A stretch of 55,119 nucleotides of DNA, filler included, from Diploschistes diacapsis (taxonomy: Eukaryota), in NCBI GenBank assembly GCA_023645945.1. It is 5 parts of 5 records of this genome, joined end to end, with 100 filler letters (N's around TTAATTAATTAA, not from the genome) between each part and the next. Parts side by side here need not be neighbours in the genome. Positions count along the whole stretch, not along the records: positions 1 to 10,956 come from JALAIB010000870.1; 4 more parts are not named here. One strand, given 5' to 3'. Below the pieces are notes generated by a model. That model ran no database searches. It saw only the letters and a program-made list of their open reading frames with translations, and had not been told where the DNA came from. This document shows positions 1 through 53,965 of the stretch, one piece after another. The translations under genes and the position numbers were made by a program. Every line of letters begins with the position of its first letter. The stretch's first letter is position 1.

Positions 1-99
1 CAGCCAGGGGCTCACGCTCTGGATGAAGGGCTCAGGGCTGCGCGCCAAAATGGCCTCCCAGTCCACCTGGTAGTTCTGCAACAGCAGGGCACAGGTTTC

Positions 100-212
100 G
101 CCGGGCACACACACAGACACACACACACGTGTGCACACACACACACGCTCACGTGCACACACACATGCACGGATGCATGCGCGCACACACACCTGCGCAC
201 ACGCAGTCTCTC
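100..212. repeat. Imperfect (CA)n/(CACG) microsatellite near contig start
   Basis: Runs of cacacaca/gcacac read directly; explains spurious ORF 12..200. Confidence 0.9.
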
Positions 213-619
213 TCATGGAAACCAGGAACCAAATTACAGGCTGGCAGCAAGCAAGGCTGATGTCACTTGTGGCAGACATGATGTAGCAGGCACGGCTCGA
301 CACTTTATTAGAGTCGGCAGCCACAGGCACGATTGGCCAACTAGGCCATGCAGCAGCAGCGAGGATGGGATGGATGGATGAATGGACGTCGGGGATGGGG
401 AGGAAAAGAGGCAGCATGATGAGAGGGGGGGGGACTTTTGATGGTATTTCTCGTCGAGCCAAGGTTGTGTGAAGAGTGGCTATCAGAGTTTCCCTACCGA
501 ACAAGACTCCGAAACTCGTGTGCATGCAATGATCCTTTGCAGCGCTTTTCGTATCACGGCCGCGGCCACGGCGGGGACAAGTCCCGCACCTGGCTTGTTG
601 CTTTCTCGCTTCGTTCTCC

Positions 620-2005
620 TCATTTCCCTCCCCTTCCACCCCTCCTTGCGCTCCTGCTCGCCTCCTTCTTCTTCTCCTTCGCCTTCTTCTCTCTCTTCGA
701 CTCCTCTTCGCCCTTTCCAGTAAACACCTTCTCTCCCGCATAGATCCCGCGCGTGGAGATGGGTCTTTTGTTGTAGTCGGCAGAGAAGTATCCTCCTCGG
801 TTTGCAACGTCGGTGGGGATTCCCTCGATCTCATTTATCAGGTCCCAACGTTCCAACCAGCCTTGCGGATGCTTCCTTATCCAAAGCTCCCGTGCCTGCC
901 CAAGTGCTTCATTCAGTTGCACGTCGTTTTGCTTGCCCGTGATCGTCTGCCACTCGAGCATACTGTGCAGACCTGGGATCTTCGCTGCTTCCTCCGCACA
1001 GAGTCTGCCTTCAAGGCTGTCGTCGCTGGGGTCACGGCGGAGGGAGAAGAGCGTGTCGGTTAGCTTGTCGATGTCTGTAATGAGTGCATCCACGGATTCC
1101 TGGTCGTAGATCACCCACTCGCCTTTCAGCATTCCGAGCCTTTCGTTTGTAATGGATTGCGATACTTCGTAGAGCACGCGACAGACGTCTCCCAGATTGG
1201 TCTCATTAAAATGCCCGCGCAGCCTGTCTTCCTCGTCCTTCATATCCGATCTGAGCTCCTCGTATATAGCTCTCCTCCTTCTCCCGCTAACCACCGGGCG
1301 CTTAGCCTTCGGTTTCCCTCCCGCTTTTCCCTTTCCTTCCTCACCCAACTCTTCTTCCTCTTCCTCTTCCTCCTCCTCCTCTTCCTTTTCTTCTTCCTCC
1401 TCCTCCTCCTCCTCTTCCTCTTCCTCTTCTTTCTCTTCTTCCTCTGCCTCTTCTTCATCTTCTTCTTTGTCCATTTCCACCCCTTCCATCCCGTCCTCTT
1501 CCTCGTCATCGTCCTCGTCCCCTAAGGCTCCTTTCTTTTCCTTAGCGGCCGCCTTTTTCTGTCTTATCTCTTCTTTCCTCGCTTCTTCCTTCATTTTTAT
1601 CCAACGAGCCACCTGCGCCGCCCATTTTTCATCTTCCGCCGGCTTCTGCTCCCTAGAGCGCTCTTCTGCCAGCCGGAGTACGTCACAGATTTTGCTAATA
1701 TACACCACTGCAAATCGAATATTGTCATCAAACCCTAAGGCTTCGACGAGGCGTGCGCGCATGGCGAGCGGAACGATCGGCCCTTCCAGCAGTCCTACGC
1801 ATGCACCCCAGCGTGACAGCCTTACGCGTAGGTGCTGGAGCCGTAGCGCAGTTATCTTGAATTCGCCACCAAAGTATTTGTGGAGACGGATGTGGTCGAT
1901 AATATCTATCGAACTTTTGAGGCCAAAATATGCAACCATAGCGAAGGCCGCCATCTCAGAGTCTGCATTTGCAGCACCGATGATGGCAAGATTCTGACTG
2001 GTCAT
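620..2005 (-). CDS. HET-s/HET-S-like HeLo-domain protein with large charged/poly-Glu insertion and degenerate C-terminal prion-like tail
   Basis: Intronless ORF, first ATG at 2005 (MTSQN). HeLo motifs: 'IRLHKYFGGEFKITALRLQHLRVRLSRWGACV' (cf. HET-S VQLGRHFGRDYERCQLRLDIAKVRLSRWGEAV), 'WVIYDQESVDALITDIDKLTDTL' (cf. WALYDGKSLEKIVDQVAGFVDEL) and 'RLCAEE...NDVQLNEA'. Confidence 0.8.
   Translation of the reverse strand: MTSQNLAIIGAANADSEMAAFAMVAYFGLKSSIDIIDHIRLHKYFGGEFKITALRLQHLRVRLSRWGACVGLLEGPIVPLAMRARLVEALGFDDNIRFAVVYISKICDVLRLAEERSREQKPAEDEKWAAQVARWIKMKEEARKEEIRQKKAAAKEKKGALGDEDDDEEEDGMEGVEMDKEEDEEEAEEEEKEEEEEEEEEEEEEEKEEEEEEEEEEEELGEEGKGKAGGKPKAKRPVVSGRRRRAIYEELRSDMKDEEDRLRGHFNETNLGDVCRVLYEVSQSITNERLGMLKGEWVIYDQESVDALITDIDKLTDTLFSLRRDPSDDSLEGRLCAEEAAKIPGLHSMLEWQTITGKQNDVQLNEALGQARELWIRKHPQGWLERWDLINEIEGIPTDVANRGGYFSADYNKRPISTRGIYAGEKVFTGKGEEESKREKKAKEKKKEASRSARRGGRGGK
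1350..1520 (-). repeat. (GAA/GAG)n coding triplet expansion encoding poly-Glu
   Basis: Plus strand tcttcc/tcctcc runs; in frame with the 620..2005 ORF. Confidence 0.9.
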
Positions 2006-2911
2006 GGTGTCGTTGGTTCTAACCGCCGACGTTCTTTCTGAGTGTCTAGCTGGTAGTAATACCCCTGTTAGACGACTCTGGAGATCCAATCTCCTTGGAT
2101 TCTGCTGTTTGTAGCTTAGAAATAGCGTTCTTCGAACAGTAATGACCTTCCAAAGCGGAAGCCAATTCTTGCTCGGATGATGCAGCGAAGAGTCGGGTAG
2201 ACTGAAGTGATAGGAGGTCGGTTTTTTATGTTGTTGATCAAAAAATGCTGGACAGATGAAAACTCAGCAGCGTAGGTCAAGTTTCATGTGTTGACAAGGG
2301 CTCTAGCAATAGCTCACGCCAGGCTTCTTTGTGCCTCCACCAAGTATGTGTACAGTGTCTTTAATGAAACAAACAATGACGCAGAATCGAAGGTTCAGAG
2401 CTGGTTTGGACGACACCATGGCCTTGCTGGTTGAAAGAGCATAGTGTCTGACAAGATAGATTGCGTTGTAAAACCCGGGATATGATAGTTCAAGAAGGAG
2501 GAATTTCTTGATTTTTTATTATCGAAGGCGTACTAATACCGGATCCTTCACTAAGTTGGGTGATAGGTGCCATTCAAAGTTACTGCCAGGACGCAGTGAC
2601 TGGGTCAATGGAGTGATTGGATGGATACTTTAGTAACTTAATACTCCTCTCGGTAGCGGTAGCGGAGGTTCTTCAAGCAGAAGCTACTTGCTGGCAACAC
2701 TGATTTAAGTAAGTAATTATCCATTATCTTGAAAGGAGGTTCTTAAGCCCACCTCGTGTCGCCTTAGAACCAAGCATATGCCTTGCTTAAGACATAAGAA
2801 GAGAGGAGTACATCTCGCTATTGCGAATTACAGCAGTGTCAAATGTACAACAAGCTCACAATACTTAGCCATCCTGAAACATGAAGTTCGTATGGACTGC
2901 AAATTCAAGCC

Positions 2912-4666
2912 TCAATCGTCTTCATCATCATCATCATCAGAAAGAGGATTTGGGGCCGTCAAAGTCTTCGACATGTACGGCCCATCTTGCCAGTAGCCCA
3001 GCCGGGCATAGTAGCTTCTTACACCCACTCCACTGATAACGCTTATTTTCTCACTACCGTGCTCGTCTCTGGCAATCCTCTCCGCCTTTTCCATGAGCAG
3101 TGTTCCATAACCTTGGTGCTGGAACTTGCGTGGGTCCCTCGCATGTACAGGTACTGCTGTACCGTAGACATGCAATTCTCGAACGATGCTCGTCTGCTGC
3201 CTAGTGAACTCCGGCCTGAAAGTGGTCTCCTTGCTGCACTTTCGGAGTCGCAGGAGAGCGATGAGGATGTCTTGCTTGGGGTCCTCGTAGGCTAGAAAGC
3301 TTTCCCAGCCGCCATTGGCCACGTAGTCTCTCCGAACAAATTCAACTTGCGAGGGGCGGATCTTATTCTTGACTTCATTCACACCAACCTCGCGCGTCCG
3401 CACATCGCGGCATGTCGTCCCGAAATCCTTCATCCTTGCGAGCGCTAGCTCTCGGAGGTTGCCATTTTCGACACCTGAAGTGACAAGTGGCATTGGGATA
3501 TCGCGCTGCACGCGGTATATCCTCGTCCACGGTGGAATCAAGGCAAGTATACGGGCGACAAGATCTACGAGAGCGTTGGGCGTGTAATTCTTGTACCGCC
3601 CTGTGCGCCAGAGCTCATAGAGCCCCGTGCCGCGGATAACAAGCGTTGGGTAGATTTTCAGGCCGTCGGTACGGAAAGCTGGATTCTCAAAGTACTCCCG
3701 GAATTGATCAAGGTCCCGTTCCATGCCAACATTGGGTAAGTCTGGCATCATGTGCGAGACAACTTTGAACCCTGCGTCCTTGGCAAGACAGAAAGTGTGG
3801 GCAACAGCGGCAACCGTATGGCCTCGATTGGTGTCCCTCGCGACATCTTCATACAGAGACTGCACCCCAATCTCAAGGCGTGTACAGCCATACCGAAGCA
3901 TGGATGACAGATGTGGTTGCAGGCAATAATCTGGCCGAGTCTCGATTGTGATGCCCACGCACTTGGTGTTGCTCATCTCGCCCGCTTCAACAGCCTCGTC
4001 AACCTTCTCTGTACTGTAACCGCTGAGCGCATTGTGAAGTTGAGCAATGAAGTTGTCCCTATAGTCCTCCGGTAACGACATGAATGTACCACCCATAATA
4101 ATGTACTCCACCTTATCCACGCTGTGGCCCAGAGACTTGATCTGCTCTACCCTTCCCCTGGCTTGCTCATACGGGTCATATCGTGCTCGTATCGCCCGCA
4201 TCGACGTCGGTTCATACCCGGTGTATGACTGTGTCGAGTACTCGAAATCGGAATCTGGACCCCCAGGGCAATAGACACATATATTGCCGGTGTATGCGAT
4301 ATGCGGACATCGATGCGGTTTGCACATGACAGCCACTACGGCGATCCCGGAAGACGTCCGGATAGGCTTAGCTATTAGCTTGGGCAAGATGTATTTCTTG
4401 TAGTGCTCTGGAACGGCAGCGATAATCGCTGTCAGCGGTGGCTGCGTGCTTAGCCTATGTTTCCTCGATACTTGTCCTCGCAGGCTGTTGAGATTGATGT
4501 CTTTTCTTGGCTTTGTAGGATCATGTTGCGCTTCGTAGTCTTGTATCAAGGCGTTGGCAACATCCTGGCAAGCTTGCATGAACCGCTCGTTTTCAGGCGG
4601 TAGCTTAACATTTTTGGGTAGCCGTAGCTTTGTGGCTACTGGACTTGCAAGAGTCTCAGTGGCCAT
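2912..4666 (-). CDS. ELP3: Elongator complex catalytic subunit Elp3 (radical SAM + GNAT acetyltransferase)
   Basis: [25 protein letters not shown]...[47 protein letters not shown]; intronless 584 aa. Confidence 0.98.
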
Positions 4667-5064
4667 CTTCGCAAGCGCTCTGGCGATAAGTGCACAAGCA
4701 AACGTGTAATGACTGACAACACCTCCGAAAGGCCTTCAACTGTCTAAGTGGTAAGTACTGAGAATAAACACAGTCAAATTATGTTTCTGCGGTCAGTTAG
4801 TGGGGTTAGTAGTCATGGAATTCCTCCCGTCCCCTCATATTGTCGGCCTGACATCCTGTATCGGGCCGATATCTCGATATCTCGGTCCGGTCGGTTAAGG
4901 GGCTGTATAACTTACCGAATATGGACTAGCACGGCCTTTAGCCTGGCCCTGCGGTTGAACTGCATGGCGGAGCTTGTTCACACCCAGACACCTCTCCAAT
5001 GCCAGTCACCACCTCACTTTCGCGCACACCTACTTTCCGCCCTTAGAGAACAACTGTGTTCACC

Positions 5065-6345
5065 ATGCAGTCATTACGGAGCAGCGCAAACGCTGTTCTG
5101 AAGTACTCCAGCAGAAGAGCATACGCCACTGCCTCGTCGCCGTACGCCGCAACAGCCAACAACCTCCGAATAAACAACGACACTAAGGTGATATACCAAG
5201 GTTTCACCGGCAAGCAGGGAACGTAAGTAGGCCACAAAACAAACCACATCTTACTAAAGCTTCTTTTCATAGTTTCCATGCCCAGCAAGCTATTGATTAC
5301 GGTAGCATTCACATTCTAATGGGAGAAAAGCTGCAGTTACTGATAACGCTCAAGGGACAAATGTTGTTGGAGGCACGAATCCCAAGAAGGCTGGTGAAAC
5401 ACACCTGGGCAAGCCTGTCTTTGCGAATGTCCGCGATGCTGTGAAGGAGACGGGTGCTACAGCTTCCGCGATCTTTGTACCGTACGTCTACTTGATGATC
5501 AGGAACGCAACTTGAGCTAACGCGAACACAGGCCACCACTAGCAGCAAAAGGCATCGAGGAGGCAATAGAAGCAGAGATCCCTCTCGTAGTCTGGTAAGT
5601 AGGGCCGCATACGTGCTTGAACCGACTTGCTAACTCGACCAGTATTACAGAAGGCATTCCACAGCACGGTAATTATTGCTACAAGATGTTTCCCACATAC
5701 TCTAACTTGTGTAGATATGGTGCGAATTACAGATATACTAAAGTCGCAATCGAAAACGCGACTGGTCGGACCCAACTGCCCCGGTATCATTGCTCCTGGC
5801 CAATGTAAGATTGGGATCATGCCAGGCTTCATACACAAGAGAGGCAGGGTCGGCATCGTCTCACGATCGGGAACACTCACATACGAGGCTGTCAACCAGA
5901 CGACTCAAGCTGGTCTAGGACAATCGCTGGTCGTCGGAATTGGTGGTGACCCTTTCTCTGGGACAAACTTCATCGACTGCCTAAAGGTCTTCCTTGAGGA
6001 CGATGAAACTGACGGTATTATTATGATTGGAGAAATCGGGGGAGCAGCTGAAGAGGATGCGGCAGACTTCTTGAAGACTAACAACGTCAAGAACAAGCCT
6101 GCTGTGAGCTTCATTGCAGGTATATCAGCCCCAGCAGGGCGAAGAATGGGTCACGCTGGTAAGTGCGTTTCTTTCATCAACTGGTTTGCGGCTAACGTGG
6201 GCAAGGTGCCATTGTCAGTGGCGGCAAAGGAGGCGCCGACTCGAAGATTTCAGCTTTGGAAGCTGCTGGAGTTGTAGTAGAGCGGAGTCCTGCAGCGTTA
6301 GGGAAGACTCTGCACGCAGAGTTTGTGAAGCGAGATTTGATTTGA
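5065..6345 (+). CDS. LSC1: Succinyl-CoA ligase alpha subunit, mitochondrial (6 introns)
   Basis: ATG 5065, targeting-like N-terminus, [37 protein letters not shown], phospho-His motif RRMGHAGAI across an intron; ends EFVKRDLI*. Confidence 0.96.
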
Positions 6346-6670
6346 TTGGTTGAATTGCGAAGCGTCTCTGATTTATCTGTACATTTTCATCATAGCTTAA
6401 GCAGGGCGATGTGTTTACCTATCGAATTTCACCCAAGTACAATCACGCAACCAGCCAATCTTACTTGAGGTCTCTTGTTTGAAGTGCTAATTAGTACTTG
6501 GCTGTCTGCGAAAACTCTTGGTGTTTTACAGTACATGTCACGTGTCCTGTAAGTAGCAATCCAAAGAAGCAGCAACTTGTGGGGAGCACCCGGAATTTGT
6601 AGATTTGAACGACGTTGCAGCCTTAAAGAACAATTAGAAGTGCCTTTCGTGGCCACAGATAAAAGTCAGG

Positions 6671-8101
6671 ATGCTTTCTGGTATCTTGATATTCAATCAA
6701 AAAGGCGAAAACCTAATCTTCCGTGCCTATAGAAATGACTGTAGGCCGCGCCTCGCGGACGTATTCCGGATCCAAGTCATCTCGAACCCTCAGGTGCGAT
6801 CCCCGATCTTGACCTTGGGCTCGACGACGTTCAGCCATGTCAAGCATGAGAACATTTACTTGGTGGCAATTACCAAGGGGAATGCCAATGCTGCCCTCGT
6901 CTTCGAGTTCCTGTATCGGCTGATCGGGCTGGGCAAGGGATACTTTGCGAAATTCGATGAAGAGGCCGTGAAGAACAATTTCGTGCTTATCTACGAACTT
7001 CTAGATGGTATGCCTCGTATTTGAGGATTCCCGTCTATCGGCAAATGGTAGAGTTATACTGACGACAATACTAGAGGTGCTCGACTTCGGTTACCCGCAA
7101 AATACAGAAACCGATACGCTCAAGCTGTACATCACAACTGAAGGGGTGAAGTCTGAGCGGTCAATGGAAGATTCTGCCAAAATAACGATGCAAGCTACCG
7201 GTGCTATATCGTGGCGGAGATCGGACATTAAATACCGAAAGAACGAGGCATTTGTCGATGTGATTGAAGAGGTCAATCTCTTAATGTCGGCTTCTGGAAG
7301 TGTGCTGCGGGCCGATGTCAACGGTCAGATTATCATGCGAGCCTACCTCTCTGGAACGCCCGAGTGCAAGTTTGGTCTTAATGATCGCCTACTCCTCGAT
7401 GGTGATAGTCTTTCGGGTCCAGTTGGGAACATTGCTGGCACCAAGGCAACAAAGGCCGCCGCTGGTAGTGTAACGCTGGAGGATTGTCAATTTCATCAGA
7501 GTGTGAAGCTTGGCCGCTTCGAAGCTGATCGCACCATTTCTTTCATTCCTCCTGATGGGGAGTTCGAGTTGATGAGGTACCGCGCCACTGAGAACGTGAA
7601 CCTCCCGTTCAAAGTTCATGCCATAGTTAGCGAGATTGGAAAGACGAAAGTCGAGTACAGTATTGCGGTGAAGGCTAACTACGGAAGCAAATTGTTTGCA
7701 ACAAACGTAGTTCTTCGGATCCCTACTCCTCTGAACACTGCAAAACTGTCAGAAAGGACCACCCAAGGTCGTGCTAAGTACGAGCCGGAGCAGAATAACA
7801 TTGTGTGGAAGATCAATCGCTTCAGTGGTCAAAGTGAATATGTTCTGTCGGCTGAGGCTTCACTAACTTCGATGACCAATCAAAAAGCTTGGAGTCGACC
7901 CCCATTAAGTGTTTCCTTTTCACTCTTGATGTTCACAGCATCCGGACTGTTGGTTAGATATCTCAAAGTGTTCGAAAAAAACAACTACAGCAGCGTGAAG
8001 TGGGTTCGCTATATGTCAAAGGTAAATTCTCTCATTTAGTGGAAAATGGAAACTCTGTTCCTGACCAAGTACAGGGCGGCTCTTATGAGATAAGGTTCTA
8101 G
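6671..8101 (+). CDS. APM4: AP-2 adaptor complex mu subunit (2 introns)
   Basis: MLSGILIFNQKGENLIFR, DFGYPQNTE, SWRRSDIKYRKNEAFVDVIE, SFIPPDGEFELMRY; last exon GGSYEIRF* after intron starting 8022. Confidence 0.95.
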
Positions 8102-8699
8102 TTCCCGGACTGCCTTAACTGGCGAACGGCATTTTTGGCAACTTTAATATTACGTGATGCCATAAATTGCGGGAGTGCTCTTCAGAGACCCAGCGCAGGA
8201 GATTGATTCCGCTGGGCGTGTCTGTCTTATGTGCGGATCCCGTGCTCGTTCAAGCCCCATCTTTGTTCGGGCTTGCTGCAAGCTGATACCTTTGGCTGTT
8301 GTGTCGGTTCATCACGCCGGCTTCCTTATATCAAGCTGGCAAGAAATCTATTGTTCGTGAACTTCGACTTCTGGGAGTCTACTACGTTGCCTTGAGTACT
8401 TTTTCTCGGGCACGTTCGCCTTACTTCCTAGTGACCGAGATCATCACCTTTCCGCCTCCAGTAGGGGAAGAAGCCGACGGCTTCCCAAAGCATCTATAGT
8501 GGTCTTCCAGTTCTCGGGGTCGATTCTGGACTTCGCGTTTCCGCGCATCAGGTACGGAATACTTGCCAGCAAATACCTTCCACGATCGAAGTGAAATTCT
8601 TCGGTCGTACACTGGTCAAATATCCTTAATCTTTGGCTTTCATATTGTTCTCCCTTCAACAGTTCTCAATATAAATACTCATAAGTCACAAAGGTGACA

Positions 8700-9976
8700 A
8701 TGTCTTCCGCACCGAGCGGGGAGCAAGGTTCATGGGACGCTTCATGTTTCCCAGACTATGCAGGTGGCAATGTCTGCATCGTGCTTGTGGAAAACCCTTT
8801 TACAGAAATTCACTTACACAGGACAACCTTAGCAAGACATTCCAAGTGGTTTGAAGTTCAATTTCAGTCTATTGACAAAGTGAGGCAGCTAAACAATGTG
8901 AAAAAGTCTGGATATCAGTTCAAGCTCGTTGTCAATCCCAAACATGCGTTTCTTAGTCTTCTCCTTGTTACCAACGTAAACGGTCTCCGTCCGATCTTTG
9001 TTTCATACTAGCTAACTGCAATCAGGAAGACCAATCGTCAGGTGCCAGGATCCCCCCAAATACCGCAGCTGGTGTCGATGAACCCCACATTAAAGCCGAG
9101 GACGAAGACACGAAGCTGGACGCTGCGAAAATTGAAGAGATAAACTCTCGAAAACAACTGCTTATTTGGACTGGGTATAGTAACTTCTTCAATGCAGTCT
9201 ACTTGATCCCTCCGAAGCTCGGCTGTTCGGACCTGCCCCCAATTCTGGACCAGTGTGAAGCACTGGTTGAGGTTGCAGCCTACCTTGAGGGCCTTCCTGC
9301 CGTTAGAATGTACATTTCTAACAGCCTCACCGAGCTTCGGCATAGGCTTTATACGGCCATAGCTCAAGATCCTGTACGCTGGTTAAACCTAGCTGTGCGT
9401 CTCAATTCCAAGGTGATATTTAGCGAAGCCTTGATCCACTGCGTTGGCGGCTTTCCTGGTATGGCGTGGCCGACACCTAGCACCAAGATCCTTCAAGAAG
9501 CCCAGCAAGTCACCTTCGAGAAAGCGATGGCCCTGGATTCTTGGGCCAAGAGAGTGGACATGCACCTTCTTGAGAATACTTTGCGCGACAAAACTTCCGG
9601 AAAAGCTGTCTCGCCCGAATACGGGCGCGGTTCATGGGTGGTAGTGTCTATATTTCGTGACTGGTTACTTGAGCAGAAACGCAAGCTCCACAAACGCCGG
9701 TACCAGTGCCAGTTCGCCACAGTTTATCGTCAGATCTATAAGGGGGGGGAGGCTTACCTGAAACTCGAAGATGTCGATATGCTCGTCAACGAGGTCCTAG
9801 GACCGAGTTACAATTTCTATGCGGAGGACAGCCTCGACAAGCTAAAGAACTCGGCCAAGGAGGCTGTGGCACCCGTTATCAAAAACAACTTGATGATCGA
9901 TCCGGAAATCGCAGAGATACCGTATCTCACTTGCGTTGAGGTGGAGGAACAGGACTATCCTTGGGAGCGAGATTAG
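8700..9976 (+). CDS. Fungal BTB/POZ-like domain protein (1 intron, about 8976-9025)
   Basis: 'GNVCIVL...IHLHRTTLARHSKWFE' resembles a BTB start; GTAAAC...CTAAC...CAG intron joins it to a helical region 'DPVRWLNLAVRLNSKVIFSEALIHCVG' and C-terminal 'YLTCVEVEEQDYPWE'. Confidence 0.7.
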
Positions 9977-10419
9977 AATGAAGTGAAGTGATAATGCTCT
10001 CGAGAAGGATGAAGCTACTAGGCGGCGAATTCAGAGTTAAGGTGGGTTAAACATGTTACAAAGATGAATTCCGATACACAGTATTAGAAGTAGCTGCTGA
10101 GCCGTGAAAAACCAAAAGCGGGGCTAAAGACACAATACCAAAGATCCTCCATGGAGGCTCCATGAAATATACGGTTCAATACACCCAAATCTAGGTTAAT
10201 AAGCCCATATTTAAGCGCCTATAAGCATGGGTCCACCGAAACCTATCCCTTAAGCCTTAACAATAGAAACGAAGATGGAGACAAAATCCTCCTCCAACGC
10301 CCGCTCTCCCGCCTGCAGCATCCCAAGTCGCCCAGTGGTCCAGTAGCCCGAAAACCCTCCCTCCTCAGGCATCCTTCCTCCTGTTCTTCTTCATTTTCCT
10401 CCTCATCCCTCAACCCATA

Positions 10420-10754
10420 TTAATTTAGCGATATCTCCCCTCCCCTCCTCTGCCGCACGTGCAACAGGGCCTGAAGTCCACAGAAAACGAGGAACGCAGC
10501 GTAGACGATGACGGCGGTAAATATGGTGCCGGCGATGGCACCGGCCTGGTCCGGATCGGGGTCGTCCTCGGTGCCAACGACGCTGTGGTGGCCGCGCTGG
10601 AAGAGGGCGCCGATTGTGGAGAGGATGAGGATAGCGAATACGGAGACTACGATGCTGTGGGGGCTTAAGTCAACAGAGGATTGAGGATGGGGCGGAACAG
10701 CGCGTACCATGTCCAGGCGTTGAAGGCGGAGACGATGGGGTGGGTGAGCTTCAT
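10420..10754 (-). CDS. VMA17: V-ATPase V0 subunit f (YPR170W-B / RNaseK family), two TM helices; intron 10655-10707
   Basis: Spliced product MKLTHPIVSAFNAWTCIVVSVFAILILSTIGALFQRGHHSVVGTEDDP...AVIVYAAFLVFCGLQ matches recalled yeast MRPVVSTGKAWCCTVLSAFGVVILSVIAHLFNTNHESFVGSINDP...FFVFCGFQ. Confidence 0.88.
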
Positions 10755-10956
10755 CGCTTCGGTTGTGCGGGTGAGAGAGAGCGCGCAAGTGGGTGGAAGT
10801 GATGGGCAGGCGTAGATTGAGATTATGCGGAAGGCTGTCTGTTCTCTGCTTCGTCGATGATCGGGGACTGGTTACGAGCCGGGCAAGGCAGGCCGACTAA
10901 GAGGGTGCGTGCCTTAAGGTTGGAAGGAGGGACACGACGTTGAGGTTGATGAGGGG

Positions 10957-12262: not shown

Positions 12263-15055
12263 TCAAATCACGCTCTGTCGCCAACGATCAATCATAGCCC
12301 TCTGCTGAGGCTGCAGGTTCGTTTCCTCGGGCATGGGCGGATAGTATGTTTTCCCCTGCCCAATTGCGCCTGGGTAATCGCTAGGAAGCTGCGCGTATGG
12401 GGCCATAGCACGATTCGGATATTGGATCTGTTGAGACGTAGAGTGTGGATAGTGAATGTGTTGAGCCATGGGGTTTGGGTACTGAATAGACTGATAAGGG
12501 CTTTTGGGAACTGATTGATGGTACTGAACAGACTGAGGTTGCACGGGAATCGGTTGGTCAGTCCTGCTTCGCTGCAAAGCCACAGGATGCTGATAGGCTG
12601 TTGGCTGCTGGAAAGTAGAAGCGTGACGGACTTTCGGACCTGCGTTGACTAAATGGCCTGGCCCTGTTCCCGAAGGAAATGTACCAGCCATCTGACGAGG
12701 GCCGACGGGATTCGATTGGAGTAAGCTAGCCATGTTGTGACGATTTCCTATGGGTATAGATCCTGCGTAGGGGTCTTGGCTAGCGCTTTGGCTGCTTGCC
12801 TGCCGAGCTTGTTGTTCAGCTTTCAGTCTTCTCTTCCTGGCCCCAAGGGTCTCTTCTGGGTCTGGAGTCTTGCTTGGGGGTTGCTGCTTGTCTTGCGCCG
12901 TACCGACGCCAAGCTGACTCAACACTTCACTTGCAAAGTCACTATTCAGGGGCCTTGATTGCGCTGGGCCTTGATCTCCTCTCAAGCGACGCTGCATTTG
13001 ACCAAGCGTCTCCCCTTCGTCTTCGATGCGAGGTGCGTTCGATGCCACTTTCGTCATAAGTCCGTAAGAACTGGCTCGCGGCTGACTTTGGACTCTGCCA
13101 CCCTTGTGAGCACCATGAAGCCTCGCTCGGCGTCGACTGAGAGGCTCATTTTCCTCGATGTACTTTTGAGCAAGTAGACCAAGTGGTCTGTCTTCTGGGT
13201 ATCTGCCTATGCTGGGTTCCTGCTGCTGCTTGCTGCTAGGGTACAAAAGACCCAGTGGGGTATCTTCATCGGGATCCTCCTCACCTTCGCCATTTGGATC
13301 TTCCCATACGAGTGAGATTTGCTTCTGCTTCCTAGCCTGTTTTTGAACTTGTGCAACGGCGTCGAGTTGAAGCAGAGTCGAGTGCATGCCATGGGGGAAA
13401 GCGGTTGCTGCGGTGCGATTTCGTTGCTTTTGTTGAGCCTTTCGGATCTGTAGTTCTGCAAGTAGAGTGGATGGTCGTTGGGTTGGGACATAATCCTCGT
13501 CCTCTTCTAGATTTACCTCTGCTTCTGGTTCAGCAGCAGCATCATCATCCTCGTCTGCGTTCTCTTCAACTGCTTGCTCGGCCTCAGTCATTCTAAGCCC
13601 TCTAAGTTTGGCGCCAAAGGCGAAGAACGAACTGGCCCTTCTTTTGGCTTTCGGCTTCGCGGGTGAAGGCTGAGCAGGGCCCGCATGCTTATCGCTTGAA
13701 TAGATTTCACCCCCTTCCTGTCCAGCCATCGGATGATCGGTGAAGGCAGCCACAGGAGCATGCGCAGAAGCATCAAGAATGCTGTCTAATGTGCGAACAG
13801 CAGACCCGTCTATGATCTCGATATCGTGATGGATAGACGGTTGGTCGAAATACGTGCTTGCGCGCAACTGTGAAGGCACATTGCTGGCTCTTTTGCGTGT
13901 GAAGTTCTCTATTGCTTCCTCTGGATCGTTAGACTCTAGAAGATCTGGGGCCGATTGGCTGGCTTGCGCTTCGCTCCGGAAAATCTCTGATCTGCGTTTA
14001 TCGAGTTGTGCGGCAGATGGTCCTTTGGAAAGCTTAGCGGGAAGATTCAGCATCATTGGCACAGGCGCTGGATAGTAGATCATATTTTCATGATCCGGTG
14101 GCATGTACGTAACGACAGGTTCTCCATCGTCTGGAGGAACTAGGGAAGCTTCGGGATCCAGTAAACCATAGCTTTCGTCTTCAACTTCAGGAGTATCCGA
14201 ATCGATGTGTACGCCATCAAAGTCCGCAAATGCGTCATGGGCACGCTGAAACGTGTCGCCCGAAGCAGCACTGTTTGACCTATCCAGCTTCTCATCCTGT
14301 AGTGGTGCTTTCAGATGTTGCGACTTGCCCTTGTCTTCCCGGTCTTGCCGATCTTGCTCTGTGGAATTCCGTACCCGTAAAATTTTTGATTCCGGCGATG
14401 GCGGAAAGTCGAGTGGTCGGCCCTCTATTGCAGGCTCGGCTGCTCTCGACGCGCTGGAAGCGTGATCCATCATTTGCACTGAACTTGGACTTTTTGCGCT
14501 TTGTATAGACCACGGCGACATGACCGAATTACTCGGTGAGGCAACATAAGCCTCGGGAGAGAAACCCCTGGAGTGTGCGACGCTGTTGACGTTGACAATC
14601 GAACTCGGATGAGACGTGGTTGAATACTGTCTGGCCACTTGCACTGAGGACCTTTGGCTGTCGGCGAGCTTCTGTCTGTCATGCAATTTCTTCACTTCCT
14701 CTCCAATATCTGAGCTCACACTTATGCGTTCCGCACTTTGTTCAAGGCGCTCGATGTTGGCGATGTTAGTGGAAGTTCGCGAGCCTGGGGTAGGCTGGCT
14801 GAAATCGGTAGCTTCTGGACGTGATACAGTTCGGACACGATTGCCATAGTGAAGGGAAGGACGTGATCCACGACGAGAACGAGACCAGTCGTCATGATCT
14901 GAAGAGCTAATGTGAGAATCTGGATCAATCCAGGAACCGGTCAAAGGACCACTGTCAGAACCCGGATCAAGCCCTTCGTGTTCGAGGACGTCGTATTCGG
15001 AGGACTCCACTGGTTGGTAGCGACTACTACTCGAGATGTTTCTCGAGCGTAGCAT
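12263..15055 (-). CDS. Conserved Pezizomycotina hypothetical protein, largely disordered (930 aa)
   Basis: Long intronless ORF with ordered islands YYPAPVPMMLNLP, TLLAELQIRKAQQKQRNRTAATAFP, IDRWRQSV. Confidence 0.85.
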   Translation of the reverse strand: MLRSRNISSSSRYQPVESSEYDVLEHEGLDPGSDSGPLTGSWIDPDSHISSSDHDDWSRSRRGSRPSLHYGNRVRTVSRPEATDFSQPTPGSRTSTNIANIERLEQSAERISVSSDIGEEVKKLHDRQKLADSQRSSVQVARQYSTTSHPSSIVNVNSVAHSRGFSPEAYVASPSNSVMSPWSIQSAKSPSSVQMMDHASSASRAAEPAIEGRPLDFPPSPESKILRVRNSTEQDRQDREDKGKSQHLKAPLQDEKLDRSNSAASGDTFQRAHDAFADFDGVHIDSDTPEVEDESYGLLDPEASLVPPDDGEPVVTYMPPDHENMIYYPAPVPMMLNLPAKLSKGPSAAQLDKRRSEIFRSEAQASQSAPDLLESNDPEEAIENFTRKRASNVPSQLRASTYFDQPSIHHDIEIIDGSAVRTLDSILDASAHAPVAAFTDHPMAGQEGGEIYSSDKHAGPAQPSPAKPKAKRRASSFFAFGAKLRGLRMTEAEQAVEENADEDDDAAAEPEAEVNLEEDEDYVPTQRPSTLLAELQIRKAQQKQRNRTAATAFPHGMHSTLLQLDAVAQVQKQARKQKQISLVWEDPNGEGEEDPDEDTPLGLLYPSSKQQQEPSIGRYPEDRPLGLLAQKYIEENEPLSRRRARLHGAHKGGRVQSQPRASSYGLMTKVASNAPRIEDEGETLGQMQRRLRGDQGPAQSRPLNSDFASEVLSQLGVGTAQDKQQPPSKTPDPEETLGARKRRLKAEQQARQASSQSASQDPYAGSIPIGNRHNMASLLQSNPVGPRQMAGTFPSGTGPGHLVNAGPKVRHASTFQQPTAYQHPVALQRSRTDQPIPVQPQSVQYHQSVPKSPYQSIQYPNPMAQHIHYPHSTSQQIQYPNRAMAPYAQLPSDYPGAIGQGKTYYPPMPEETNLQPQQRAMIDRWRQSVI

Positions 15056-18583: not shown

Positions 18584-20881
18584 ATGGCCACTAATCCTCT
18601 CAGAATTTTGCCATTTAGGTCCTCTCATCTCTCTCTACGGCCCTTGTTTCGCGGTTCTACAAAAAGCTCAAATATTATACGGCCCATATCGACATTACGC
18701 GTAAATCCAACTCTACCCCCCTTCAGCCTGCGTTCCTCGTTTCTCCGGCCACAGAGTCTCAACCAGCAACCGCAACAATGCCGGACTGTCTATGGTGGCA
18801 GTTCGCAGAACCTGCTCGCACATATGGAGCAGACCGCAAACAACAATCCAACAAGTGCAACGGCGCAGAATGCTCTCTACTCGGCATTGCTACGAGCCAA
18901 CATGCCTGCTATTGTGGTGGAAAGATATCAAACCGGTAGATACGCTACGAATGCTGCGGCTCAGGCTACATATGTGAAAGCATTGGAGAGAATCGGTCAA
19001 ACTGATGCTGCCGGTAGTATCAATGCTGGTGGGATCCCACAAGGCGCAGGCACTCAGTCGACACTTTCCAACGAGCAGCTACAGGCTATTGGACAAGCTA
19101 TTGCAGCGAAATCACATGGTGGGACTGTCGCTGTTAATCGTCCGAGGTCAGAGTCGGTAGGCGCTGGTGCCGGCGGAAAGGAAGCTCCTCTCTACGTGGT
19201 AGTAGATGAGTCGCGTGGTGCAGCAATCTTCCGATGGATCAAATTCATTGTAACGTTTGCTTTTGTGGCTTGGATTTCTATGGTATTTGTCATGCTCTTC
19301 GTTGAGACGACTGGCGTCCTTAAGCGTGTAAGTGGCATTCAGAATAATGAGGCCCAACCTCAGCAACAGAAAGCACGATTCTCGGATGTTCACGGTTGTG
19401 ATGAGGCCAAAGAAGAATTACAAGAGCTAGTCGAATTTCTCAAGGATCCTAGCAAATTTTCAAATCTCGGTGGCAAACTTCCGAAAGGCATCCTTTTGGT
19501 CGGACCTCCCGGAACCGGCAAGACACTGTTGGCTCGAGCCGTGGCTGGCGAGGCTGGAGTCCCCTTCTTCTTCATGTCAGGATCTGAATTTGACGAAGTA
19601 TACGTCGGAGTAGGAGCGAAGCGTATTCGAGAGCTGTTCAACTCTGCCCGCGCCAAGGCCCCTGCGATCATTTTCATTGACGAACTCGACGCTGTTGGAG
19701 GCAAGCGTAACGAACGGGACGCAGCTTATGTGAAACAGACGTTGAACCAACTGCTCACAGAACTCGACGGCTTTACACAGGAGACTGGTGTCATCATCAT
19801 TGGTGCAACCAACTTCCCTCAATCACTCGACAAAGCTTTGACCAGACCGGGGCGGTTTGATCGTCATGTTGTAGTACCCCTGCCGGATGTCAGAGGTCGC
19901 GTGCAGATTATCAAGCACCACCTGAAGAACGTCAAAGTCGAGGCTGAGGTGGATCCTTCGACGATTGCTCGCCAGACTCCTGGCTTCTCTGGAGCCGAGC
20001 TCGAGAACCTTATAAATCAGGCAGCTGTTCATGCTAGCCGGAACAAGCAGAAGACTGTTACTCTTCTTGACTTCGACTGGGCCCGAGATAAGATCATGAT
20101 GGGCGCCGAGAGGCGAAGTGCCGTCATTCAGGAGAAAGACCGGATTATGACAGCGTACCATGAAGGCGGCCACGCCCTGGTCGCTCTGTTCACTGCTGGA
20201 GCAGATCCGCTGTACAAGGCGACAATAATGCCCCGAGGTCAAGCGCTAGGTATCACGACCATGCTTCCAGAGATGGACGAAGTCTCAAGATCTAAGAAGC
20301 AATACCTCGCCACAATCGACGTTTGCATGGGTGGCAAAGTCGCTGAGGAGCTTATTTACGGAGATGAGAATGTTACGAGCGGAGCATCAAGTGTAAGTAC
20401 CGGATCAACATCTACTTCTCAACGGACACGCTAATTCCGTACCTAGGATATTTCCAACGCAACAAGTATCGCCTATGCAATGGTCACTCAAATGGGCTTC
20501 TCCGAACTCCTCGGCGACGTCGAGCTCGATAGTAGGTACAACCGTCTCTCCTCGGAGACAAAACAGAAGATAGAGAACGAGGTCCGACGTATCGTCGACG
20601 AAGCGCGGCGGAGAGTCACCACCCTTTTGACAGCCAAGAGGAAGGAGCTTGACCTTGTCGCCAAAGCGCTCGTCGAGTACGAGGTTCTAAGCTTGGACGA
20701 GATGCAGAAGGTGCTGAAGGGAGAGAAGCTGCCGAAGCTCAGTGCGGAGCCGAACACGAATACGCCAATCAAGTTACCTGACCTGAAGCTGCCGCCAGGA
20801 TTGGGCGGACAGGTGGCCGGGGGCCAGTCATCTGGCGGCGGAGGGGACACACAGGGCAAGGGTGAGGATGCAAGGATATGA
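18584..20881 (+). CDS. YME1: Mitochondrial i-AAA protease Yme1 (intron 20393-20446)
   Basis: Single TM, FSDVHGCDEAKEEL, Walker A GPPGTGKT, Walker B IFIDELD, RPGRFD, M41 zinc motif HEGGH. Confidence 0.96.
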
Positions 20882-30308: not shown

Positions 30309-32591
30309 ATGGGGTATAGGGAGGACCAGGACTTACCGAGTAAACGGACTGCTACTTCCGACGACGATCCTCCGCCGCCAGCGTACGCACCTCCGCTTCC
30401 ACCGCGAGAACCAGAAGTCTCGGAAGTGGGAGCACGAAATCCTCATCCTTCTGATAACGACGCGAAGCGAAACTCTTCCCTCTGGACCTCTCAAGATCCT
30501 CGCGCTGCGTCTACGGATTCGCTGGTTCCTCAGCAATCCATAGGCTCAAGGAGGACATTATTGTTGATATACATCCATGGCTTCCTCGGCGATGAGACTA
30601 CTTTTCGCTCCTTTCCTGCGCATGTTCATAATTTCGCGACCCACTTGCTTTCCAAGTCTCATGTTGTGCATACGAAAATCTACCCCAAGTATAAATCGCG
30701 GCGGGCGATTGAATTCGCGCGTGATGCTTTCACCGAATGGTAAGATTTTTTGCATTGGGATCCACACTCTATCATAGAGATATAACTCTGCCTTAGGCTT
30801 AAGCCACACGAATCGTCTAATACAGATGTAATCTTGCTTGGCCACAGCATGGGCGGTCTCCTGAGCGCTGAGGTGTGCTTGAAGAAAGCGAACCCAGCAA
30901 GTGGGTCTGTCGTCCTACAGCATAGAATTCTAGGAGCCATCAACTTTGATGTGCCATTCTTGGGAATGCATCCGGGCGTGGTGGTCAGTGGAATTGGTAG
31001 CCTGTTCCGACCCACTCAGCTATCTCCTTCTTTGGAACAACATAATGCGCTACTTCCCATGCTCGAGAGCGAGCATGAGCTGGGCGTTTCTCCTAGTAAC
31101 GCGCCACTGCTTCAGCAACGGGAACGGTCTACCGAAGCTGATCAGGACTGCCCTAGCTATTTCCCGCCGAATGCATCCAGCAGCTTCTCGAATAACTACC
31201 ATAGAGTAGCAACAGGTGACAGCTCAAGCCATGCTACGCCCTTGTCAATTCCTGTCGGTGACCCAAATTACAACCCTAGGTTCGACAATGATGTTATCAT
31301 ACCAATGAGGAAGGGCTGGGAAAGTGCTCTTCATTTTGTAACGAAACACGCAGGTGGACTGACTCAAGCTACGAAGACGTATGTGACATCCCATCTTGAA
31401 TTTGGTGGTGCTATGGCGGATTTTAAGTCCCTGCATGAGCGGTACATAAAGATCAGGTCTCTGGAAGACATCGACGACTTAGGACCATCTGGCGCGGCTC
31501 AAGGTAGACCTACTAAAAGGGTACGCTTTATAAACTATTACACCGCAAGCACTGGCAGATTGCATCCACCTAAGCCACTTCCACCGGAAGTAGACGCACA
31601 AAGTAATCTGAGAGGAAGGGAAGCGTCTGGAGAACGAGGATCACAAGAGCTTGGAGTCGAGCAAGACATGAGATTTACAAGATCACGACCCGAAAGCCCT
31701 AAGGTATCAGTGGAAGACCCAGAGGGTAATGTTATGCTTGAGTCATTCGGCGTGGAAAACCCATCCCTCGATGAGGATAACTTAGAGGACACGATTGACG
31801 CCGTTGATGATCTAGACCAAGTGGAGCCGAAAGCTATGAGCGAGGACGAGAGGGATGCATCTAGGGAGGATGAAGAAGCAACGAATATGAAGCCTTTAGA
31901 AGCTAGCACTACTGATCTCCATACTGTTTCAACTGATACTCAAAGCAAAGATGACCAACTGCCACCTATTCCACCGGAGCCCACGGCTCCAGGTAAGATT
32001 GACCTCTTAACTTTCTCTAACAAAGAAGTTCAGAAGCTTCATGAAAAGGATTACGAGCGAAAGATGAAGGCTCATAAACAAGCCGTAAAGGATAGGGAGA
32101 GGGCAATAGCCGAGCGACAGAAGATACTAGACAGGAGGGAGAAAAAAGTGAAGAAGGAGCAAGAGAAAGCGCTCAAGGCAGACAAAAAGGCTGCAGAGAA
32201 AGCAGAGAAGCAGAAGGCCAAGCAGGAGGCTGCAGCAGCGAAGGCTGCTAAGTCTTCCACCGAGCAGGGCAAGAAAGTCAAGAGCGAAGAGAACGGCACA
32301 GACGAGTCAAACGCCCACCGTGAGAAGAAAGACAAAGACAAGCCAAAGAAAGACCGCAAATTCTGCATCACGCCTTCCAAAGGGCCCAACGGCGAGAGAG
32401 ATCCTACCTGGATCCGAGTGTACATGGAAGGCGTTGACGAAGTAGGTGCGCACTGTGGGATCTTCTTCGACGACAAGCCGCATTACGAGAAGTTCGTCAA
32501 CGATGTAGGAGCGAAGATCGAGGAGTGGATTGATCGAGACTTGTTTGTGCGCGAGAGAGTGCACGAGATTGCTTTGCGGGATATCGCGTAA
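30309..32591 (+). CDS. DUF676-like putative serine hydrolase with Lys/Glu-rich coiled-coil insertion (intron 30740-30796)
   Basis: LLLIYIHGFLGDETTF, LLGHSMGGLL, FDVPFLGMHP, C-terminal VDEVGAHCGIF. Confidence 0.85.
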
Positions 32592-41686: not shown

Positions 41687-43239
41687 CTACTTATCCGGCT
41701 CGTACAGTCTCGCGAATCCAAGATCTTCCAAGTCCCTTGCATCTACACTCTCCATTAATGATGTTTCTTGGCTTTCTGCCTCCTTATTCATTTGATCATT
41801 CAACGTCCTAGTGGTAAGGCTCTCACTCCTGGGCCTACCTGAGTGCGGGTTTCGATTTAAAGGTTGAAATGGCGCTTTGTTCAATTTCTTGGGCGCTGCA
41901 CCTTGGGAGGTCTGGTAGCCACGTATCCTACAAAGCATTAAAGAAACGTACGCAAAGCGTTGTTCACATACCGAGGCCCTTGCCCTTTAAATTCGGGAAA
42001 ACGATCCTCGTACATCTTCGCAAAGTCCTCCACGCAGTTTTCAAAATCACCACGAGCGATGCTTTCCCGTACGCCTTGGAAAAAGTCGTCGATCACATGG
42101 TGGTTGTGGATCTGAAGTAGCACCCAGGCAAGCATTTCCTTTGCAGACAACAAATGTTGAACATAAGCTCGGTGGTGGCAACGACAAGCATAGCACTTGC
42201 AATCTTCTTGCAATGGTAAGAGACTTCGGGAATGTAAGGGCTGCCACATATCGGCCCCAAGAGGTAGCCGTCCATGCCCAGTATCCGACACTGGAAACCG
42301 AAACGTGAAAGCAATCCCAGCTTCTGATGCTGCGGTGATGAATGGTAAGGTGAAAAGGTCAATTCCAAGACTAATTGACCGCAGGATCTGATGCGGAGAG
42401 CGAGGCCTGTAAAAGCTTATTCTTGGTAAGCCTTGCATGTTGCTTGGTACGCTCGATATGCTATTTTCGTCATATAGAACGACTCCGCCAAAGCCAGACT
42501 GTGCATTGTCTTCAAGATGCTCGATGTAGCTTTTCTGGACTTCGGGCTCGATTGGGAGAATTGGTACCCAAATCGTGCTGGTAGGCTTCCCTAACCGTCT
42601 TGCACCCTCTATTTCAGCTTGCAGACCGCGTAACCAAGCAGTAGACCTTTCAACCATATTTCCTTGGCTCTTTTGTCCTGGTGTCATGCGACCAGACCCC
42701 AAGTCTACAGGAGCAATAACAACATCAGGTCTCAATTTACTAGCAGCTTCGATATAGCTGGATATCTCCAACATTCGAAATCCTACTGACGTAGAAATAC
42801 TAATGGCAGTGGGACTGTTGGGGGAAGAGCCAGGGATAGGGGGCAGCCGTCGCGGTCCAAGGATGAGAAGGGCATTCTGCTGTAATGCGACGAAGCGTCG
42901 CAAAGGCGATTCTGTAGCCAAGCATGGAATTGCGGTAATTGGGGAAGGTTTCGGGAGGTGCTCTGCATCTTTCTAGCCCGCCGGAGCGAAAATGTTAGCA
43001 GCAGATATGGTTCCTGTATTCCTATACATACAGTCTTCGAATGCTACGTAGAGGCTACTTAATGCTGTCTCACTCTGCATCATGTCTGGGGTTATGTGCG
43101 GCACGCATCCTCGAGAACTAATCCCGATGTAGTGGGGTGTCCGGATTGGTCGTCGACGTTGACCTGTGTACTCGAGTCGACCCAGGCGAGCTTCAGTGCC
43201 TGAGAAAGCAGAACTCTGAATCGCAAACATAGTCTCCAT
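41687..43239 (-). CDS. QTRT2: Queuine tRNA-ribosyltransferase accessory subunit (2 introns)
   Basis: ARLGRL...IRTPHYIGISSRGCVPHITPD; SPHQILRSISLGIDLF; zinc site CKCYAC..HHRAYVQHLLSAKEMLAWVLLQIHNHH; GQGPR|IRGYQ. Confidence 0.9.
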
Positions 43240-52600: not shown

Positions 52601-53411
52601 GGAGCTCAGAGGATGGGACTATGGCACGTTAGAGATTGATGACACAATACAGTCTGAGAAGGTGCCCGAAGACTTGAGGAACTTGCGAATCAAGGTCTAC
52701 AGCTCGATCAATAAGGCCAAGTTAAAATCTAATAAGGACGGGACATGGACGGCAAAGAGAGGCCACAAGATCAATTTAGCTGTTGAAAAGCGATATTCTA
52801 GCGCCATCATCGTTGAGTTTCGTAAAGACCAGGCAATCAAGGATAAAACGCCAGCTTACGCCATCCTGTGGTTGAAGGACATTGCGGACGACATCGGCTT
52901 GGAAATGGATTTGCCGGTATGGCGAGGAAGTGACTCGGACTTCAAGCGCGCTCGAGCCAATGTCCTGGAGGAGATGGGCGAGCGAGCGGGAAGCCTCAAA
53001 CTCAAGCTCAAGCTCTTTGCTGGCCTCAGTGACTATCACAAGAAGCTGAAGGACCCCAAGACCAAGCACGTCATGGAATGTCTGGACATCGCGAGCGCCA
53101 ACAAGGACCTGCCAGATGAAGACAGAGTTTCCGAGGATAACTCGGACTCGGGCTCGTCAAGCGACGAGGCCGAGCATGCGGGCAACGATGGCAAGAACGA
53201 TAATGACAGCAGGAGGGGACCGGTAGACGCGGTCAGCGACTACATGGACGACCACAAAGCCCTACATAGGCAGCATAGGGGTATGATGCAGTGGAAAGCG
53301 GCCAGGACGGCAAAGTGGATGAAGACGAAGGTCAAGGACGATATGGGAGGGAAAGTAAAGGATGCGTTGAAGCGGAAAGGCAGAGACCAAGGGATTGAAA
53401 GAGAGGTCTGA
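49637..53411 (+). CDS. Mug190-like membrane protein with TM hairpin, SMP-like domain and two C2 domains (intron 51171-51216)
   Basis: VTDPVTHLPVTIHD, two hydrophobic helices, PESAMWLNSIIASIWPLINPDLF, C2 motifs LQLWDSDRSSADDDLGRIEV and PSPYCTIIIN...NPFFNAGTERF. Confidence 0.88.
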
Positions 53412-53896: not shown

Positions 53897-53965
53897 TGTG
53901 TGTGTGTGTGTGTGTGTTACTGAAAAGAAAAAAGAAGAAGAAGAAGAAGAAGAGGAGGAGGAGCA
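53897..53965. repeat. (TG)n followed by (AAG)n/(AGG)n microsatellites
   Basis: Read directly. Confidence 0.92.

Follow-up and report, generated by a model that had tools for sequence, protein, structure and literature searches.

HeLo domains are helical bundles of fungi, and in PMC3531502 HET-S is described as expelling its N-terminal hydrophobic segment and permeabilising membranes. The subject of this analysis is a putative gene of this family in Diploschistes diacapsis, found in a stretch of 55,119 nucleotides (filler included) which consists of five parts of assembly GCA_023645945.1 joined end to end, positions 1 to 10,956 coming from JALAIB010000870.1; the whole stretch is referred to below as the window. 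The closest described proteins are HET-S and HET-s of Podospora anserina (PF14479; PDB 2WVO, 2WVN and 2WVQ), which belong to the same family as the Diploschistes protein and share its predicted fold. In sequence, its nearest relatives are compact HeLo proteins of the "small s protein" type (P0002, P0003, P0047 and others), which are 224–346 residues long, have a connector of 28–49 residues and mostly carry PF17046 or a HET-s-type motif. A similar action may be assumed by analogy with the four-helix bundle of MLKL, the fungal HELL domain (HELLP) and plant RPW8, in which, according to PMC12881547 and PMC9815663, a helical bundle releases its extreme N-terminal helix to attack membranes. These systems are switched by phosphorylation, amyloid templating or oligomerisation of a nucleotide-binding oligomerisation domain-like receptor (NLR), none of which could be inferred for the protein described here. 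To our knowledge, HeLo and HELL domains are switched either by amyloid templating from an NLR or by direct fusion to an NLR.

With moderate confidence, the Diploschistes locus can be read as a real, divergent and so far orphan HET-S-type HeLo gene with a block-charged loop that was grown by slippage and is tolerated by the fold. The protein resembles HET-S and HET-s in its N-terminal hydrophobic segment, the RWG motif and other core positions. It differs from them by about 131 extra connector residues, an N-terminal extension of 11–17 residues, a basic Arg-Gly-Gly tail in place of the two-repeat prion-forming domain, the failure to find an adjacent NLR in the available flank, and an identity of only 11–18% in structural alignments. 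Unlike most of the compact relatives, it has neither PF17046 nor a HET-s-type motif. The family, the fold and the presumed action are already known; the architecture, as judged from the sequences compared, is a variant not found among the relatives examined, combining a charged insert, an N-terminal leader and an Arg-Gly-Gly tail with the absence of an amyloid motif.

The open reading frame (ORF) lies on the minus strand. It occupies exactly positions 620..2005 and is intact, as stated in a preliminary description of this DNA, and its translation contains all the peptide strings given there. Of two in-frame ATGs, the first is in a strong start context (CACCATGA) and the second, codon 18 (Met18), in a fair one (GAGATGG). 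The GC content at codon positions 1, 2 and 3 (0.62, 0.37 and 0.61) resembles that of the housekeeping ORFs of the window. The elements of the gene are as follows.

620..2005, minus strand: whole ORF, 461 codons plus the stop codon at 620-622, first ATG at 2003-2005.
1955..2005, minus strand: N-terminal extension, residues 1-17, a short hydrophobic stretch plus NADSE, absent if translation starts at Met18.
1652..1954, minus strand: N-half of the HeLo domain, residues 18-118, with the hydrophobic N-terminal segment, the L..RWG motif and a helix running into the insert.
1526..1651, minus strand: first part of the insert, residues 119-160, rich in Lys, Glu and Ala, net charge +4.
1340..1525, minus strand: second part of the insert, the acidic block, residues 161-222, 49 of 62 being Asp or Glu, net charge -46.
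1349..1467, minus strand: poly-Glu core, an imperfect tandem repeat (Tandem Repeats Finder; periods 3, 6, 9 and 15) of GAR codons on the coding strand.
1205..1339, minus strand: third part of the insert, residues 223-267, a Gly/Lys-rich linker, a basic cluster and a predicted return helix (241-263).
878..1204, minus strand: C-half of the HeLo domain, residues 268-376, with R289, W297, L319 and D361 kept.
716..877, minus strand: C-terminal extension, residues 377-430, with an extra predicted helix (380-393), at the place of the amyloid motif in relatives.
623..715, minus strand: tail, residues 431-461, rich in Lys, Glu and Arg, with Arg-Gly-Gly repeats at its end, net charge +8 and a predicted helix (433-455).

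The full protein passes the gathering score of the Pfam HeLo family PF14479 (51 bits, E 2.1e-13; cut-off 23.2), the match being a single alignment of residues 30-339 with profile positions 14-192 of 205 that spans the insert. When the insert was left out by scanning the two halves separately, the N-half alone (residues 1-118) remained above the cut-off (31.6 bits, E 1.8e-7). The HeLo-like (HELL) family Helo_like_N (PF17111) was listed neither with the whole sequence nor with one of its halves as the query, at E up to 10, although HMMER filters remove most matches above E ~0.1 from such lists. When 1.84 billion representative proteins were scanned with HMMER, 43 matches had E ≤1e-3, namely 36 HeLo-type proteins, nearly all matched in two stretches that correspond to the N-half and the C-half, and 7 low-complexity matches to the acidic region. 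The best relative, P0002 (E 8e-11, 32% identity), was matched in both halves.

Two data sets of relatives were used: alignment A1, which contains the query and 34 of the 36 relatives (a 1052-residue protein and a 134-residue fragment were omitted), and profile A2, built from 36 relatives with the query left out. Profile A2 finds both halves of the query in colinear order, residues 29-~125 on profile positions 18-~112 (62 bits) and residues ~265-371 on positions ~120-226 (37 bits). Within the 34 relatives, 48 columns reach an identity of at least 70%; at 31 of them the query carries the commonest residue, and where it departs the change is mostly conservative. The four invariant columns (L56, R65, W66 and G67, forming the L..RWG motif) are among those 31, and the near-invariant R289, W297, L319 and D361 of the C-half are likewise retained. 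A phmmer search of PDB sequences detected HET-S (2wvo, E 6.3e-4) by an alignment of HET-S residues 19-66 with query residues 30-77. The top match of that search, CWC22 (E 2.9e-4), and several others were rejected as homologues, being low-complexity matches to the acidic stretch. The A1 profile matches the HET-s/HET-S chains with E ~1e-71, a score which is carried by the relatives and serves to place the insert on HET-s numbering.

The AlphaFold2 model computed on alignment A1 has a mean predicted local distance difference test (pLDDT) value of 76.7 and a predicted template modelling score (pTM) of 0.61. Over most of residues 21-120 and 271-380 the block means of pLDDT are ~83-96, with two blocks of the C-half at 68 and 82. 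In a Foldseek search of the PDB only four HET-S/HET-s chains were matched (E 2.3e-5 to 9.9e-5, target TM-score 0.78-0.82), the next match having E >5. VIA-align against 2wvq, 2wvn and 2wvo gave Z values of 23.2-23.7 at a root-mean-square deviation of 2.6-2.9 Å, with 200-208 of 207-222 residues aligned and the next Z at 5.2; the aligned span runs from model residue 3, 16 or 20 to residue 374 or 376. Therefore, the two halves of the model together reconstitute almost all of the HET-S domain, with the insert skipped. Taken with the PF14479 match and the relatives-only profile, this superposition, in a model that rests on the alignment of relatives, bears out the earlier proposal of a HET-S-like HeLo domain present in two halves. 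The ESM Atlas returned a best feature score of 0.85 with unrelated clusters, below the level at which that tool counts a score as meaningful.

The insert corresponds to residues 119-267 (window 1205-1651), between the halves at residues ~18-118 and ~268-376, and lies in the connector equivalent to roughly HET-s residues 100-120. Between profile positions 95 and 135 the query holds ~170 residues compared with a median of 39 in relatives, that is, ~131 extra. A Lys/Glu-rich helix, poly-Glu and an Arg cluster had been noticed at this place before, and the composition of residues 119-267 agrees with that; the extent first given (about 140 residues, about 1240-1650) was close, and is replaced here by the limits above. 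In the model the HeLo helix ahead of the insert runs on without a break across residues 119-160, giving one helix of residues 93-161, and in a fold predicted from the single sequence 10-residue block means of pLDDT reach at least 66 only at residues ~131-160 (66-81) and in the helix of the C-terminal tail. The basic cluster of the third part (Lys-Pro-Lys-Ala-Lys-Arg ... four Arg) brings the net charge of residues 223-255 to +7. Of the 24 ORFs of at least 150 residues in the window, no other contains 30 consecutive residues of which at least 60% are Asp or Glu.

Loops expanded by low-complexity sequence are frequent in the proteins of eukaryotes. Having an imperfect repeat of the GAR trinucleotide as its core, the acidic block has probably grown by replication slippage. 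Elsewhere in the window, DNA resembling the insert is confined to a short GAR-type repeat at 53922-53967 (80-90% over 29-45 bases). The latter sits just past the 3' end of the second Mug190-like ORF (51264-53411).

How unusual the insert is within the family was assessed in 155 relatives covering at least 150 of 209 domain positions (8 other retrieved proteins, which were fragments or of low complexity, were dropped). The equivalent segment in this sample, the composition of which is weighed below, measures 28-49 residues (median 39), and at no place in the domain is a single insertion longer than 13 residues. The short loop that the preliminary description ascribed to relatives was thus found at this site, and none of the 155 shares the insert or carries anything comparable. 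In addition, the best 120 of 626 profile matches are all 241-346 residues long, though proteins of up to 606 residues were eligible. Among the nearest relatives sampled, such an insert is thus clearly not common, though a close lineage outside the sample may have it as well. Of the 581 candidates from a word-indexed search with residues 1-125, none reached E ≤1e-3; no relative emerged when metagenomes were scanned with each half in turn, and the A1 profile search yielded only 3 matches, being swamped by poly-Glu words. Searches of an open-access library, with PMC3531502, PMC3321046, PMC9815663 and PMC12881547, turned up no account of a large charged insert within a HeLo domain, and the text of PMC9815663 does not contain the word "insert".

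The larger departure from the known logic of the family is the C-terminus. Most of the relatives' listed matches carry PF17046; 98 of their tails fit the strict PP/SesB pattern and 5 the HET-s pattern, and many of the other 52 are variants by eye. In the query, none of the amyloid motif families of Pfam (PF11558, PF17046 and others) was detected at E up to 10, though a motif of another type may be present. Motif profiles were built from the 98 PP/SesB-type and the 5 HET-s-type tails selected, with duplicates and tails shorter than 15 residues dropped beforehand. The query tail (residues 372-461) scored -0.8 bits against the PP/SesB-type profile, with 213 of 300 shuffles at least as good, and -1.5 bits against the HET-s-type profile, with 178 of 300 shuffles at least as good. 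A degenerate amyloid motif at residues ~417-429, which MAFFT had placed under the motif of the relatives, was rejected because the tail scores below most shuffles. Residues 400-433 are modelled with low confidence (pLDDT ~36) and are probably disordered. Furthermore, no motif-like segment was present in 1684 six-frame pieces of the window, which makes a hidden downstream exon in the remaining 619 bases, or a matching NLR N-terminus in the window, unlikely. Neither NACHT nor NB-ARC was detected in the 14 largest ORFs scanned, out of 17 ORFs of at least 200 residues, in a window that extends 53 kb on the 5' side of the gene. The absence of a recognisable amyloid motif, which was overlooked in the preliminary description, is at least as relevant to any "rewiring" of the protein as the insert.

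At the other end of the protein, the interpretation has changed. It had been proposed that the residues NADSE interrupt the membrane helix; the alignments instead place NADSE at the N-terminus of the family (Met-Glu... in relatives, whose initial Met-Glu is put by MAFFT at query residues 16-18), and the hydrophobic segment that follows is unbroken from Met18 as far as Lys30. The best 19-residue Kyte-Doolittle mean, which starts at residue 18, is 1.44, compared with a median of 1.69 (range -0.01 to 2.02) in the 30 of 34 relatives that could be measured, the other 4 lacking the anchor motif. According to PMC3531502, HeLo domains sit at the extreme N-terminus of proteins. Here the hydrophobic segment does so only if translation begins at Met18; from the first ATG, 11–17 residues precede it. 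As read from the sequence, it is this extension ahead of the hydrophobic segment that is the unusual trait of the N-terminus. The leader stretch Leu-Ala-Ile-Ile-Gly-Ala-Ala looks by eye like the start of the N-terminal helix of relatives. A partial duplication of the helix start is a possible source of the leader. The length of helix 1 varies across family models, according to a 2025 review (PMC12881547).

Two positions of functional interest in HET-S were also located. Tyr44 of the query aligns with HET-S His33, at which Pro, found in the non-toxic HET-s, is inactivating, and Lys105 (window 1691-1693, minus strand) aligns, by two chained profile alignments, with HET-S Glu86, the change of which to Lys abolishes dimerisation and liposome leakage (both effects as given in PMC3531502). 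The lysine is probably not meaningful, since the family consensus at that position is Gln.

If the gene is the divergent HET-S-type HeLo gene favoured here, the two colinear pieces (residues ~18-118 and ~268-376) would together encode the helical bundle, and the insert, far from disrupting the domain, would represent an expanded surface loop that points away from the bundle. By default, the protein may still be able to act as a HeLo-type membrane-targeting module, because it retains the residues of the conserved core and a hydrophobic segment at the N-terminus. If active, it would not be switchable by canonical templating from an NLR to an amyloid, as it has no recognisable amyloid motif and no NLR gene was found in the available flank, and some other oligomerising cue would be required.

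A number of points weigh against this reading. The need for another oligomerising cue is its weak point, and a HeLo domain devoid of an oligomerising trigger may be inert. The C-half with the tail (residues 256-461) reaches only 19.9 bits (E 7e-4) against PF14479, below the cut-off of 23.2, which the N-half passes on its own. Predicted from the single sequence, the fold has a mean pLDDT of 44.5 and a pTM of 0.21, with similar helix positions and no confident tertiary structure; the structural match is not independent of sequence homology, since a confident fold is obtained only when the relatives are aligned with the query. The sample of 155 relatives is redundant, 121 of them having a segment of exactly 39 residues and mostly belonging to one subfamily with a HeLo domain and a SesB motif, and as its members were selected for high profile scores, compact forms are favoured. 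The word-indexed, 1.84-billion-protein HMMER, metagenome and exact searches brought to light no close orthologue, the best relative having 32% identity. The protein, in full or starting at Met18, has no exact copy in a collection of 15 billion proteins, in which the product of the neighbouring Elp3 gene is present.

Several of these points would fit a decaying relic as well, namely a former HeLo-amyloid effector that lost its NLR partner and its motif and is now drifting, its frame still open because the decay is recent; such an origin is a minor possibility, and the accumulation of a slippage-driven low-complexity tract and an altered N-terminus, which would accompany it, is to be given the same limited weight. 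In its favour are the absence of an amyloid motif by Pfam, by tail profiles compared with shuffles and in the 1684 six-frame pieces, the negative outcome of scanning the 14 largest ORFs for NLR domains, and the failure to find either a close relative in any collection searched (best 32% identity) or the protein itself in public sets. That the loss of one partner frees the other from selection is argued by Daskalov et al. 2012 (PMC3321046). Nevertheless, a frame of 461 codons is unlikely to stay open without selection outside the repeat itself, 31 of the 48 conserved columns are kept, with all four invariant ones among them and mostly conservative changes at the others, both halves are confidently modelled, and the GC content by codon position follows a coding pattern. 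Moreover, an adjacent NLR gene could lie past the 619 bases which the window holds on the 3' side, and the fusion of HeLo domains to uncharacterised regions is, according to PMC3531502, common.

An improbable alternative is that of a rewired HeLo protein, in which the segregated charges would constitute an intramolecular electrostatic latch or a targeting signal, rendering the protein autoinhibited, nuclear or nucleolar, or a non-toxic decoy. Basic clusters of this kind resemble nuclear-localisation signals. The charge blocks are indeed strongly segregated (acidic block -46, basic cluster +7, Arg-Gly-Gly tail +8), an active protein without the amyloid trigger would have to be controlled in some other way, and the Lys/Glu-rich part is predicted, even without an alignment, as a long helix joined to a domain helix. 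By analogy, and for the latch only, G3BP may be compared: it combines an acidic tract and an Arg-Gly-Gly basic region in one polypeptide and, according to PMC7181197, is autoinhibited by binding of the acidic tract to the Arg-rich region, though the protein and its fold are unrelated to the query. On the other hand, a tract made of an imperfect trinucleotide repeat is the expected outcome of neutral slippage, no orthologue was found that could lend support from conservation, and the retention of the N-terminal hydrophobic segment speaks against a simple loss of membrane function. Similarly improbable is an extended proposal, in which a HeLo pore-former would be switched not by amyloid templating but by the charged insert together with the Arg-Gly-Gly tail. 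The acidic block (-46) would then keep the basic cluster and the tail, or else the membrane-binding face, in an electrostatic latch, and opening of this latch by a cue such as pH, Ca2+, phosphorylation or cleavage would free the N-terminal helix.

The gene model itself was examined for introns. The whole ORF contains a single GTRNGY 5' site, which lies inside the conserved C-half and not at the insert. There are 43 in-frame GT..AG pairs that span the insert, all of them devoid of a GTRNGT-type 5' site, with purine-rich 3' ends and no branch-site motif. The canonical short-intron pattern has 21 candidates in the window, none of them in this ORF on its strand, and the same pattern recovers a likely real intron of 46 nucleotides at 51171-51216 in a Mug190-like gene. 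The latter gene (49637-53411) is represented by two ORFs whose SMP-domain matches abut (profile positions 1-131 and 153-232 of 232), and between which lies a canonical short intron (GTATGT ... CTGAC ... CAG, ~51171-51216). On this sequence evidence the insert is unlikely to be an intron. A gene-model artefact, in which the charged stretch is wholly or partly intronic or other exons exist and the mature protein is a compact HeLo protein, is hardly credible: the frame would be trivially open in GAR-rich sequence (two other frames there are open too), the ORF is absent from public predicted proteins and other genes of the window clearly have introns, but the available splice sites are poor, an intron of ~400 nucleotides would be many times longer than the 46-nucleotide example, a domain helix is predicted to extend over the initial 40 residues of the insert, and no exon with an amyloid motif occurs downstream in the window.

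The HeLo gene shares the window with ordinary housekeeping genes of eukaryotic type. Elp3 is its immediate upstream neighbour and has the same orientation; the protein cluster at 90% identity to which Elp3 belongs consists mostly of hypocrealean names, with two genomes of lichen fungi, and points to a filamentous ascomycete. After Elp3 come genes for an AP-complex mu subunit, a G-patch/GCFC protein, Yme1, Cyk3, MTHFR, queuine tRNA-ribosyltransferase and the Mug190-like protein. The Yme1-like ORF (18584-20434, plus strand) ends within the M41 peptidase profile (positions 2-89 of 191), and the queuine tRNA-ribosyltransferase ORF (41938-42774, minus strand) begins at profile position 113; since these matches are partial, both genes probably have further exons. 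Two long ORFs, 12263-15055 (minus strand, 930 residues) and 30849-32591 (plus strand, 580 residues), have no Pfam family at E 1e-5. In the 619 bases that the window holds 3' of the HeLo gene, a (CA)n-type microsatellite with higher-order periods of 20-22 bp lies at 106-202, just past the end of the gene.

HeLo and HELL domains are the fungal counterparts of the membrane executioners MLKL and RPW8. If expressed and active, the HeLo protein of Diploschistes diacapsis would point to another mode of control, and the connector at ~HET-s 100-120 would be a permissive insertion site that could help in tagging the domain. Should the charged insert and the tail indeed act as a switch, they would exemplify an amyloid- and NLR-independent control of an MLKL-like executioner in fungi. 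If, instead, the gene is only an orphan or decaying one with a loop grown by slippage, it would be a case of ordinary low-complexity expansion in a fast-evolving immune-type family. The evidence leans to the ordinary reading, and the gene is best regarded as an oddity within a known kind of system.

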